DNA of 64,000 nucleotides from the sequence record NC_070987.1; one strand, 5' to 3'. Below, in pieces: positions 28,230 to 30,916 of this stretch. Source of the stretch: Escherichia phage MN05. A program made the position numbers and the translations under genes. The notes under the pieces were generated by a model, which saw only the letters and a list, made by a program, of their open reading frames with translations, was not told where the DNA came from and did not search any database. Positions within the stretch are counted from its first letter, which is position 1. Each line of letters starts with the position of its first letter.

Positions 28230-28445
28230 TTAATATTCCTTGATTGGAGAAACTACAAAACCACCCAGAACTGACATATGGGATTGTCTTAAACTTACCG
28301 TATTGACAGGCATTGGTACAACTTTTAAAGCTTTCTTGAAACGACGAGCCTCTTTTCTGGTCTTAAAGTTTTCTGAAAAAGGGACTGGATTGTCCCCCAC
28401 GTAATACACCACTGTCCAGAAATATTTAATCTTTTCCATATTCAC
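28230..28445 (-). CDS. Small protein, family B (TRKEAR..KK motif)
   Basis: Shares the TR(K/E)EAR..KK core and C-terminal Y with 30301..30916. Confidence 0.45.
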   Translation of the reverse strand: MNMEKIKYFWTVVYYVGDNPVPFSENFKTRKEARRFKKALKVVPMPVNTVSLRQSHMSVLGGFVVSPIKEY

Positions 28446-28717
28446 TTAACACCTAAAGCTGTGTCCAAAAATGCTTTCAGGTTTGCTTCAGTCTGCATAC
28501 CAGAGAGGCTGTAATGTGCACCACTGTTACGATCAGGCACAACGAAAGCAGGGATGCTTCGTACACCATACTTAACAGCTTGCTCACGACCATCACCTTC
28601 AAGGATGTTAATCTCTTCCACTTCTACATCAAACTCCTTAACAACCTTCTCAAAGGTAGGAGCCATTGCTTTACATGGAGCACACTGATCACTATAAAAC
28701 TTAATTACTTTACTCAT
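28442..28717 (-). CDS. Thioredoxin / glutaredoxin-like protein
   Basis: CAPC active-site motif in thioredoxin-fold context; track ORF trimmed to ATG 28717 with SD AAGGA. Confidence 0.6.
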   Translation of the reverse strand: MSKVIKFYSDQCAPCKAMAPTFEKVVKEFDVEVEEINILEGDGREQAVKYGVRSIPAFVVPDRNSGAHYSLSGMQTEANLKAFLDTALGVK

Positions 28718-28907
28718 TCTATTCCTTGTTAATAAACAGGTTGATATGACGCTGGGTAGCAGGAACAACAATAAAAGATTTATACTGACCTTTTGCTAGG
28801 TCATGAGCAATCTTCTTTGTCTGACCAAGACCCATCACACAGCCACTAACGATAATGGCATGTGCTTGTAATTCTTCAGGTAGGTTTAGTTTCACTCTTT
28901 GGATCCC

Positions 28908-29093
28908 TTATAGCATACAAAGAATAATAACAAGAGGTAGTGTTATAGCAAAATGTACCAGAACAACACTACCTAGCTTGATAGCTTTAACATCCTCTTC
29001 TGCTGGGTTTTCTTTAATTGCTAAATTTCGAGCTTTATATATAACAGTACCAACTATTAACGACCACACGGCCCACACAATCAGTGAAATCAT
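28908..29093 (-). CDS. Small membrane protein, pair E (1 of 2)
   Basis: Two predicted transmembrane segments. Confidence 0.45.
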   Translation of the reverse strand: MISLIVWAVWSLIVGTVIYKARNLAIKENPAEEDVKAIKLGSVVLVHFAITLPLVIILCML

Positions 29094-29102
29094 ATCAAAC
29101 CC

Positions 29103-29282
29103 TTATGCAGTCAGGAGGTGAAGCAGGAATGGGATAACAACAGCTACGATAACCATGATAGTTGATGCTGTTTGAATCTCACCTTTCTTATCAGGAGTTT
29201 CTTCAATAAGCTTACCAGAAGCCCAATAAATACCACCACCAATAAAGATAGCCCAAATACCCCATACGATTGCTGATAACAT
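29103..29282 (-). CDS. Small membrane protein, pair E (2 of 2; 59 aa, below the track cutoff)
   Basis: Paralogous N-terminus (M.S.IVW..W....G..IY) and two transmembrane segments; replaces the alternative-frame track ORF 29144..29416. Confidence 0.4.
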   Translation of the reverse strand: MLSAIVWGIWAIFIGGGIYWASGKLIEETPDKKGEIQTASTIMVIVAVVIPFLLHLLTA

Positions 29283-29342
29283 ATATCTATATCCTTATAA
29301 ATAAGTTCGCCCCACCTCGGGTTAGGAGACAGGGCGGAGGTT

Positions 29343-29906
29343 TTAGTAAGACACGTCACCACTTGAATGGGACATGTTGCTCTTGACGAAGTAGCAATAC
29401 TTGCCAAGACCTTCATTAATTTCTTGAAGCATACTCTGATCGACAGGGTAGGTGGCTAAATCGCCATCAAACTCATCCATCTTCTCAATAATACACATCA
29501 AGGTCATGCACATATCAGAGAGCATACCGTCCATATCCAGATCAGCATTACCCTCTGAGAACCAAGCATGAGAGATGTAGTTAGCTGCTGTAGCATCCAC
29601 TTTAACACAGTGGTAACGCATACGTTCAGCAATACGATCTCCTACCTGTCGTGCGTAATCTTCCAGCTCATCAAACATACCATGAACACCCTGAAATCCT
29701 GCACCAGAGACGTTCCAGTGATAGTTTTTAGCTTTGATATGCAAGAGTTCCATGTTAGCTTGTAAGCAGCTCAGGATGTGTTCTAGGCTATTTCCGCTAA
29801 TCATGCCTTGCATCGTTTCAAGGCGAGAGATTGAAAGCTCAGACCGGTCTAACATGTTATATTCTGCACGACCAATCTCAGGTAAATCAAAGACATTCTT
29901 ATGCAT
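29343..29906 (-). CDS. dps: Dps / ferritin-like protein
   Basis: KNYHWNVSG...FQGVHGMFDE...ARQVGDRIAER matches the Dps ferroxidase-centre helices; start trimmed to ATG 29906 with SD GGAGA. Confidence 0.65.
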   Translation of the reverse strand: MHKNVFDLPEIGRAEYNMLDRSELSISRLETMQGMISGNSLEHILSCLQANMELLHIKAKNYHWNVSGAGFQGVHGMFDELEDYARQVGDRIAERMRYHCVKVDATAANYISHAWFSEGNADLDMDGMLSDMCMTLMCIIEKMDEFDGDLATYPVDQSMLQEINEGLGKYCYFVKSNMSHSSGDVSY

Positions 29907-30228
29907 TTGGCTTTTCTCCATCAAGTTCAACTGAATTAGCAACGTTACGTTCCAGATTGTCAATTACCTGCTGGGTAATTACGATGCAGTTCTGTGGGTC
30001 TACTGACTTAGAACGCCCCATTTCAGGGTCATACACCTTAACTCGCTTAGCAGTTGAACCTGTAACCTGAAGAACCTTCAACAGATACCCCTGATTACCA
30101 ATAGACCAAGCAACAACATCACGATTCTTGATAAAGCGACCAAGCATATCACGATGATAAAACTGTTGCATCACCTTGGATTTTGTAATCTCTTCAGTGG
30201 GCGGGGCCACTTTACTCAAATCTAACAT
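29899..30228 (-). CDS. Hypothetical protein
   Basis: Track ORF. Confidence 0.45.
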   Translation of the reverse strand: MLDLSKVAPPTEEITKSKVMQQFYHRDMLGRFIKNRDVVAWSIGNQGYLLKVLQVTGSTAKRVKVYDPEMGRSKSVDPQNCIVITQQVIDNLERNVANSVELDGEKPNA

Positions 30229-30300
30229 AACTCTCTCCTGTAAAATACAAATTCTTATTGTACTCTATATACATTTGAGAGTTATCATATCTACTACCAA

Positions 30301-30510
30301 TCAGTAGTAAATTACTTTAGACATAAAAGAACCAGTGTTAGGGTCTTCATACCAGCGATGTATGTCAGCGCTTTTTACTATTGTGCCCAGAGTCTTCAAC
30401 TGTTTCTTAGCAATACGAGCCTCTTTGCGAGTGTCAAACAATTTGATGCTATCTTTTCTCATGTGTTGCTCAAGATCCCAAACAACATGAATAGCCCACA
30501 TCTTTTTCAT
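30301..30510 (-). CDS. Small protein, family B
   Basis: FDTRKEARIAKKQLK...VIYY. Confidence 0.5.
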   Translation of the reverse strand: MKKMWAIHVVWDLEQHMRKDSIKLFDTRKEARIAKKQLKTLGTIVKSADIHRWYEDPNTGSFMSKVIYY

Positions 30511-30719
30511 TAGTAATGCACCTTTCCGCTGATATAAACACGACCAGAAGAATACTCCTTGGCCTTATGGATACTGATACTATTGACCACGTCACCAGTA
30601 AGCATAGTCTTTTTAAAATCTCGAGCTTGTTGGCGAGTGGGTAGTGCAGTCATAGTCATGCCACCTGATGCCCACTTAATCTTTGCTAACCAAAATTTTC
30701 TCATAGTGATTGGTCTCAT
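30510..30719 (-). CDS. Small protein, family B
   Basis: LPTRQQARDFKKTML...KVHY. Confidence 0.5.
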   Translation of the reverse strand: MRPITMRKFWLAKIKWASGGMTMTALPTRQQARDFKKTMLTGDVVNSISIHKAKEYSSGRVYISGKVHY

Positions 30720-30916
30720 TAATAATAAACCTTGCTGTTGGCAAAAAGAGCACCTTCGTTATTCACGATAGCTTTACCAATACTAACCTTGTTAAACCTA
30801 AAAGTAGATTTGTATTGATTTTTGACCCTACGGGCGTGCTCTCGAGTATTAACAAAATCTACAGCTACTAACTCTCCAGTCGTGTTATCATGTACACGAA
30901 CAATCCACTTTTTCAT
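30719..30916 (-). CDS. Small protein, family B
   Basis: VNTREHARRVKNQYK...KVYY. Confidence 0.5.
   Translation of the reverse strand: MKKWIVRVHDNTTGELVAVDFVNTREHARRVKNQYKSTFRFNKVSIGKAIVNNEGALFANSKVYY

Follow-up and report, generated by a model that had tools for sequence, protein, structure and literature searches.

Four strongly basic PHROG 4939 paralogs in Escherichia phage MN05: arrangement, divergence and a tentative function

Escherichia phage MN05 (NC_070987.1) carries four small genes, here called A, B, C and D, on the minus strand of the stretch of 64,000 nucleotides that was analysed (the window). With high confidence they can be described as real genes that look expressed and as members of one old single-domain family of about 65–70 amino acids (aa), PHROG 4939, which is limited to phiEco32/7-11-like podophages. 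Concerning the function, binding of a polyanion, most probably nucleic acid via the DNA or RNA backbone, is suggested tentatively from composition and conservation. A first-pass annotation of the window had already noticed the four reading frames as a cluster of paralogs; this observation is confirmed and its interpretation is partly supported. The gain lies in a sharper description together with testable hypotheses, and three features lie outside that annotation: the uniform strong basicity of the proteins, their faster and mosaic divergence in comparison to the neighbouring genes, and their variable copy number.

Kuraviruses find use in phage therapy against E. coli and are studied for it, and most of their early genes are without assigned function. 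Here, PHROG 4939 is among the few families of small genes that occupy a fixed position in all phiEco32/7-11-like phages examined; it is also uniformly very basic and forms the local hotspot of divergence and allele exchange. On these grounds the family can reasonably be considered for a role in host interaction or nucleic-acid handling in which otherwise near-identical phages differ. Were its ligand identified, three to four genes in about 100 genomes would be annotated at once, which might help to explain differences in host range or in sensitivity to defence systems. The family itself is well defined and already catalogued and will not surprise the specialist; the result is solid but ordinary in kind.

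Family membership, gene junctions and expression

The relationship of the four proteins was assessed by formal alignment. In pairwise Smith-Waterman comparisons with 1000 shuffles each, significant similarity was found for four of the six pairs (A-B z=7.2, A-C z=5.7, B-C z=8.7 and C-D z=8.8), where none of the shuffles reached the observed score; the pairs A-D (z=2.3) and B-D (z=3.0) are not significant alone. All four proteins match phrog_4939 over its full length, from profile position 1–2 to 67 of 67, with E values of 3.8e-12 (A), 1.7e-28 (B), 3.6e-28 (C) and 1.2e-27 (D). By these sequence comparisons A to D are true paralogs of one family, as had been proposed. A profile built from them found only A to D among the 1024 six-frame open reading frames (ORFs) of the window, the next best match having E=0.94, and neither this profile nor a broader one of 42 sequences revealed further copies in the 64 kb.

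The shared core reads T-R-[KEQ]-[EQH]-A-R-x-x-K-[KN] and is accompanied by an N-terminal W and a C-terminal Y. Of the motif originally read from the four proteins, FxTRKEAR..KK with a terminal K-[VI]-x-Y(Y), the TR..AR..K core holds for all copies. The F before TR is missing in C and D, and A ends with IKEY and not with K-V-x-Y.

PHROG 4939 is a catalogued family with the label "unknown function", which is also how the function had been described before. Its members B, C and D are the orthologues of phi32_69, phi32_70 and phi32_71, hypothetical proteins in the phiEco32 reference genome to which they are 83–97% identical, and no functional study of phi32_69-71 (gp69-71 of phiEco32) was found in the literature. 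The genes of the window are the same in kind as those of phiEco32, to which the window adds the fourth copy A.

The window as a whole belongs, judged from nucleotide similarity, to a Kuravirus (Gordonclarkvirinae), a phiEco32-like podophage. A megablast search with positions 27500–31700 matched 97 phage records, almost all of them phiEco32-group Escherichia and Shigella phages with 91–98% nucleotide identity. The order on the minus strand is that of phiEco32: primase/helicase, DNA polymerase exonuclease subunit, nucleotidyltransferase, dCTP deaminase, phi32_71, phi32_70, phi32_69, phi32_68, the Dps-like phi32_67, small ORFs, thioredoxin and ThyX. This order bears out the earlier statement that the cluster flanks the Dps and thioredoxin genes. 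The position 3' of the dCTP deaminase gene and 5' of the 109-aa gene and Dps is the one that phi32_69-71 occupy in the annotated genomes of phiEco32, WFI101126, 172-1, KM01 and EP335. Copy A stands apart from the array, between the thioredoxin gene (stop 28444-28442) and thyX (start 28214).

The four ORFs are present on the minus strand at the coordinates first assigned to them (Table 1), and D, C and B do lie in direct tandem with abutting start and stop codons. The stop codon TAA of D (30721-30719) and the ATG of C (30719) have one base in common, giving TAATG, and the same holds for the stop codon of C (30512-30510) and the ATG of B (30510). Upstream, the ATG of D overlaps the stop codon of a 68-aa ORF (ATGA). 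The arrangement of AAGG plus TAATG is also found in phiEco32, KM01, EP335, SU7, EK010, ECBP2, IMEP8 and O18-011 as well as in the distant metagenomic locus L018, and the overlaps between tandem copies are conserved as either TAATG or TGATG. Since the codons overlap and this arrangement is conserved, the sequence suggests that D, C and B are probably translationally coupled. The K-V-x-Y codons of D and C coincide with the AAGG sequence and the start codon of the next gene. Due to this overlap, the C-terminal "motif" may owe part of its conservation to constraints on the RNA besides those on the protein.

Table 1. Features of the PHROG 4939 locus and its surroundings. Positions refer to the window unless a locus or phage is named.
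Feature	Position	Strand	Remarks
Paralog A	28230..28445	-	69 aa from ATG 28439 or 71 aa from GTG 28445; stop TAA 28232-28230
Paralog B	30301..30510	-	69 aa; orthologue of phi32_69; last in the tandem array and in the early gene cluster
Paralog C	30510..30719	-	orthologue of phi32_70; 69 aa from ATG 30719 (overlaps the D stop) or 64 aa from ATG 30704
Paralog D	30719..30916	-	65 aa; orthologue of phi32_71; first in the tandem array
C-to-B junction	30508..30526	-	AAAGGTGCATTACTAATG; last C codons K-V-H-Y-stop hold an AAGG Shine-Dalgarno-like sequence and the TAATG overlap; read from the sequence
D-to-C junction	30717..30735	-	CAAGGTTTATTATTAATG; D codons K-V-Y-Y-stop likewise double as the ribosome-binding site of C and hold its stop/start overlap
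Core of the phiEco32 gp36-sigma promoter motif (tAATGTATAtA)	30268..30275	-	AATGTATA; motif search
Thioredoxin-thyX slot	28215-28445		copy A in the window
Thioredoxin-thyX slot in relatives	L008 5852-6334; L010 6086-6577; L012 6086-6577; L020 10001-10228		
Defective B of myPSH2311	L014 3947-4147		truncated or frameshifted after about 22 residues
phrog_9296 pair	28908-29093 and 29103-29282	-	61 and 59 aa, hydrophobic
Dps/ferritin-like gene	29343-29906	-	
68-aa ORF	30913-31119	-	phrog_2347, function unknown
Nucleotidyltransferase gene	31663-33018	-	

Two of the start codons allow a choice. For A, the ATG is likelier than the GTG, and relatives annotate this copy in a 67-aa form. C is annotated with 210 nt in phiEco32 and with 195 nt in WFI101126; the shorter, 64-aa start is used in some relatives.

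The expression classes can be taken from the SU10 paper (PMC4281155). By homology to experimentally classified phiEco32 genes, it counts CDS 69-125 as early and CDS 25-68 as middle genes, and it describes the early genes as ending without a terminator. Since these classes were derived by homology to phiEco32, D, C and B are by analogy the last three early genes, and A is placed in the middle cluster. The motif of the gp36 sigma factor, likewise taken from the SU10 paper (PMC4281155), has eight matches in the window, where 3.2 are expected. One of them, AATGTATA, falls within the 72 bp that separate B from the 109-aa gene and marks, just 3' of the array, where the early genes give way to the middle ones; the SU7 annotation has a promoter at the equivalent position. 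A scan of the region for sigma-70 promoters and terminators gave no more sites than in shuffled sequence.

Distribution, history and local divergence

A word-indexed profile search of 5.8 billion proteins yielded 92 clusters of the family, all of 64–87 aa; the long contigs among them measure about 75–80 kb, as kuravirus genomes do. When 1.84 billion representatives (50% identity) were searched exhaustively with hmmsearch, only 31 clusters were obtained at E <1e-3, all of 47–82 aa and each matching in one stretch. Orthologues are annotated in about 90 phage genomes, and the reading frames are intact across these and across metagenomic contigs. Every genomic context examined was that of a phiEco32/7-11-like phage with the same layout of a dCTP deaminase gene, one to three tandem copies, a 110-aa gene and Dps. 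In distant contigs, the dCTP deaminase gene is followed by one copy (L016, 88.7 kb) or by three tandem copies (L018), then by the 110-aa gene, ferritin/Dps, thioredoxin and ThyX. From these searches and contexts, the family is clade-restricted, old and fixed in position. A tblastn search of the distant metagenomic members against GenBank phages returned kuraviruses only, or nothing, and a search of IMG/VR for related loci returned four known genomes only.

The cluster had been described as a lineage-specific duplication. This stands as far as the confinement of the family to phiEco32/7-11-like phages is concerned, but the duplications themselves are of old date. A rough neighbour-joining tree has members of two or three genera (Kuravirus, Nieuwekanaalvirus, Suseptimavirus) in each of the four clades A, B, C and D; as each clade spans several genera, the tree places the duplications before the split of these genera and they are not recent. 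Three tandem copies of its own stand at the corresponding position in a distant metagenomic relative.

Copy number was compared in 14 sequenced relatives (Gordonclarkvirinae loci) and ranges from two to four, with B and C in all 14. B is truncated in myPSH2311. D is missing in SU7, EK010 and ECBP2, and in the metagenomic locus L020 an unrelated 73-aa gene takes its place. A is present in WFI101126, 172-1, KBNP1711 and NJ01 and in a divergent form in ECBP2 and EK010, and it is absent in six of the 14 (phiEco32, KM01, EP335, SU7, IMEP8 and O18-011).

The slot between thioredoxin and thyX is variable as such. In place of copy A, it holds an HNH endonuclease gene in EP335, SU7 and O18-011 and a very divergent member of the family in the metagenomic kuravirus L020, and it is empty in phiEco32, KM01 and IMEP8. 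As regards myPSH2311, its 68.7-kb record is also without neighbouring genes; the defect of B could be a real deletion or an assembly problem.

Within this conserved layout the family genes diverge strongly. Compared with its relatives, the dCTP deaminase, Dps, orf109, thioredoxin and ThyX proteins of the window are mostly 94–100% identical, whereas identity amounts to 42–100% for B, 48–100% for C, 37–59% for A and 52–97% for the true orthologues of D. Sliding nucleotide identity drops to 52–63% against 172-1 and IMEP8 and to 60–68% against O18-011 at 30410–30300, the 3' half of B. Further troughs lie at 30860–30770 in D (50% against WFI101126) and at 30650–30560 in C (78% against 172-1), and the flanks of all these troughs are 98–100% identical. 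Such sharp troughs beside nearly identical flanks indicate at the sequence level that short allelic segments have been exchanged between phages. The alleles of B, C and D reassort freely among genomes: a B of the window type is combined with three different C types in phiEco32, NJ01 and KBNP1711, and the combination in this window was seen in no single database phage. Within the orthologue groups hardly any change affects strand 1 or the first half of the helix; what varies is mainly the loop joining strands 1 and 2, the helix end together with the loop behind it, and the turn that links strands 3 and 4.

Nei-Gojobori dN/dS values from orthologue comparisons, which are approximate owing to recombination, are 0.35 for B, 0.34 for C, 0.42 for D and 0.25 for A; the neighbours have 0.05 (dCTP deaminase, Dps and orf109), 0.09 (ThyX) and 0.12 (thioredoxin). 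The family is under purifying selection, which is 5–8 times more permissive than in the neighbours or partly diversifying, and with values below 1 this argues for A to D being real genes.

A second local hotspot of divergence is the nucleotidyltransferase gene (dN/dS 0.17). Among kuraviruses in which the adjacent dCTP deaminase is 98–99% identical it shows 76–83% identity, and about 32% in other genera.

Protein properties and possible functions

All 92 distinct members are strongly basic, with a pI of 9.47–11.12 and a net charge of +5 to +12, and the neighbouring enzymes have a pI of 4.7–6.2. AlphaFold2 models of B (pLDDT 89.2, pTM 0.73) and A (pLDDT 91.4, pTM 0.77) have the same order of elements, strand-strand-helix-strand-strand, which in B are predicted at residues 2–11, 21–25, 28–40, 45–56 and 60–63. 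In an alignment of 42 sequences with a mean column identity of 30%, W5, T27, R28 and R32 (B numbering) never vary, and conservation reaches at least 90% at A31, K35 and Y69. From the sequence and the model of B it is inferred that positions 28, 32, 35 and 39 lie within about 40 degrees on the helical wheel and would thus form one flank of the helix.

Searches of Pfam, PADLOC and PDB sequences with the four proteins and the 42 members gave nothing significant. Among known nucleic-acid-binding Pfam domains (dsRBD, the RNase H1 hybrid-binding domain/Cauli_VI, AbrB-like and others) no match recurred, and DUF7204 appeared for two of the 42 members at E >=0.059. Foldseek searches with the model of B reached at best E >=0.38 in the PDB, no fold match to a solved nucleic-acid-binding domain being found, and in BFVD every match (E up to 0.02) was an uncharacterised protein of a phiEco32-like, 7-11-like, GAP52-like or Aeromonas relative.

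These properties are the basis of the suggestion that the proteins possibly bind nucleic acid. Here, the invariant basic stripe on the helix flank, formed by T27-R28, R32, K35/K36 and K39, would contact the backbone, and the overall charge would aid binding. The three variable loop regions would tune the recognition of each copy, and with a set of diverged copies produced jointly at an early stage of infection, several targets or conditions would be covered. Some points weigh against this. Instead, W5, R28, R32 and Y69 might serve structure alone, as a network in which, for instance, an arginine touches the C-terminal carboxylate or an aromatic ring; the strong positive charge fits binding to an acidic protein equally well; and fast mosaic evolution with variable copy number is found more typically in genes for host interaction or counter-defence than in housekeeping genes for nucleic-acid binding. 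Furthermore, no family member is among the 34 SU10 proteins identified by mass spectrometry of phage preparations, an absence that is uninformative on expression in infected cells.

The evolutionary pattern leads to another explanation, namely that each paralog is a small inhibitor or modulator of a host protein, acting for instance on an acidic surface of a defence nuclease, a toxin or another host factor. Expansion of paralogs, swapping of alleles and gain or loss of genes slot by slot would then result from an arms race with diverse E. coli hosts. This is in line with the fastest divergence in the neighbourhood, the raised dN/dS, the identity troughs as traces of allele or cassette exchange, the alternating content of the A slot and the early class of the genes. 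On the other hand, dN/dS stays well below 1, and each phiEco32/7-11-like genome or contig examined keeps at least one copy in the same place, with B and C in all 14 Gordonclarkvirinae loci, which resembles core rather than accessory genes. The structural matches are weak and generic, and the strict conservation of the basic helix across paralogs of about 25% identity would point to one common ligand feature and not to many protein targets. PADLOC, which covers defence and not anti-defence proteins, gave no match for the 42 members at E up to 1. A role in host takeover or counter-defence is somewhat less likely than nucleic-acid binding and is the main alternative to it. The conservation of synteny leads into a different direction, where the co-translated paralogs would assemble with each other or with nearby acidic phage proteins and serve as adaptors or chaperones, that is as accessory subunits of replication or nucleotide metabolism. 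The Dps-like protein, thioredoxin, the nucleotidyltransferase, the polymerase subunits and the primase-helicase are candidate partners. The strictly kept neighbourhood of the dCTP deaminase, 110-aa protein, Dps, thioredoxin and ThyX genes in distant relatives would fit, as would the conserved one-base overlaps, which suggest coupled translation in fixed ratios, and the acidity of the neighbours next to a basic family. Yet the free reassortment of B, C and D alleles is unexpected if their variable surfaces touch each other and weakens the idea of a hetero-complex. In addition, the wide variation of the family genes contrasts with the near invariance of the proposed partners, D and A are not needed by many phages, and neighbourhood in a phage early operon is weak evidence of physical interaction; such a role appears improbable.

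That the genes are non-functional filler or decaying duplicates with a meaningless similarity is effectively refuted. Their shortness, the lack of known domains and the defective B of myPSH2311 would agree with it. Against this stand the highly significant matches of the family profile, the intact reading frames, dN/dS below 1, confident and concordant structure predictions, the invariance of key residues at 25–30% overall identity and the conserved signals of translational coupling.

Going further, PHROG 4939 might represent a previously unrecognised, phiEco32/7-11-specific fold class of small proteins binding nucleic acid or host factors, in which the fixed basic helix would give affinity and the loop cassettes of the co-translated paralogs, exchanged at a rapid pace, would give specificity for the target. 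This is speculative and rather unlikely, but if true, the PHROG 4939 array would be a compact and evolvable module for host takeover or genome protection.

For the preferred reading, nucleic-acid binding, small basic architectural binders such as Sso7d/Cren7, HU-like phage proteins and phi29 p6 offer a functional analogy only. They are also very small and strongly basic, probably abundant, and made alongside replication genes. In contrast, the predicted fold of the family is different, and there is no sequence or structural match. As for small alpha/beta inhibitors from phages, T4 Dmd, AcrIIC3 and the Ung inhibitor p56 have no sequence similarity to the family, and their structural scores are in the same range as generic alpha/beta matches (PsaD, topoisomerase III and designed proteins). 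The family is uniformly basic, whereas p56 mimics DNA and is acidic, and Dmd is not known to be strongly basic.

A likeness to DUF406/YiiS (PF04175; PDB 2K3I) was pursued and rejected. The YiiS sequence, which was confirmed against 2K3I, contains F-x-T-R-E-E-A-x-x-F...K-L-K, which aligns with F-x-T-R-K-E-A-R-x-x-K-K of the family, and its order of strands and helix, judged from the sequence and not from the structure, appears similar. However, the family alignment has nothing that corresponds to the invariant K-C-x-x-K-G-C and F-S-C-Q-A-E of DUF406, and DUF406 does not conserve T-R. PF04175 was absent from the matches of the four window proteins (E up to 10) and of the 42 members (E up to 1), and hmmsearch gave E 0.25. 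Membership was rejected because the hhalign probability fell from 53% with a single sequence to 26% with a DUF406 family profile, for which an alignment was built, over 25 columns. Likewise rejected was a likeness to DUF2188 and the RNase H1 hybrid-binding domain (W-x-V ... F-x-T-x-x-E-A), as DUF2188 never appeared in hmmscan and Cauli_VI matched one of the 42 members at E=0.15.

Neighbouring small genes and annotation of the region

The small ORFs around the array (orf109, orf68, orf58 and two small membrane proteins) gave only families of unknown function in PHROG and Pfam scans. The 68-aa ORF lies between the dCTP deaminase gene and D. It is found in WFI101126, 172-1, NJ01, IMEP8, O18-011 and myPSH2311, and not in phiEco32, KM01, KBNP1711, EP335, SU7, EK010 and ECBP2. 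Between Dps and thioredoxin the window holds a second pair of paralogs, both of phrog_9296, which is apparently a single copy in some relatives and has a likewise raised dN/dS of about 0.3–0.4.

The Dps/ferritin-like gene is labelled "integrase" in several deposited kuravirus genomes (KM01, IMEP8 and pEC-N1203-2Af.1), and other small kuravirus ORFs bear implausible names, for example "isoleucyl-tRNA synthetase" or "baseplate hub assembly protein". These names look like annotation errors that have been copied from record to record.

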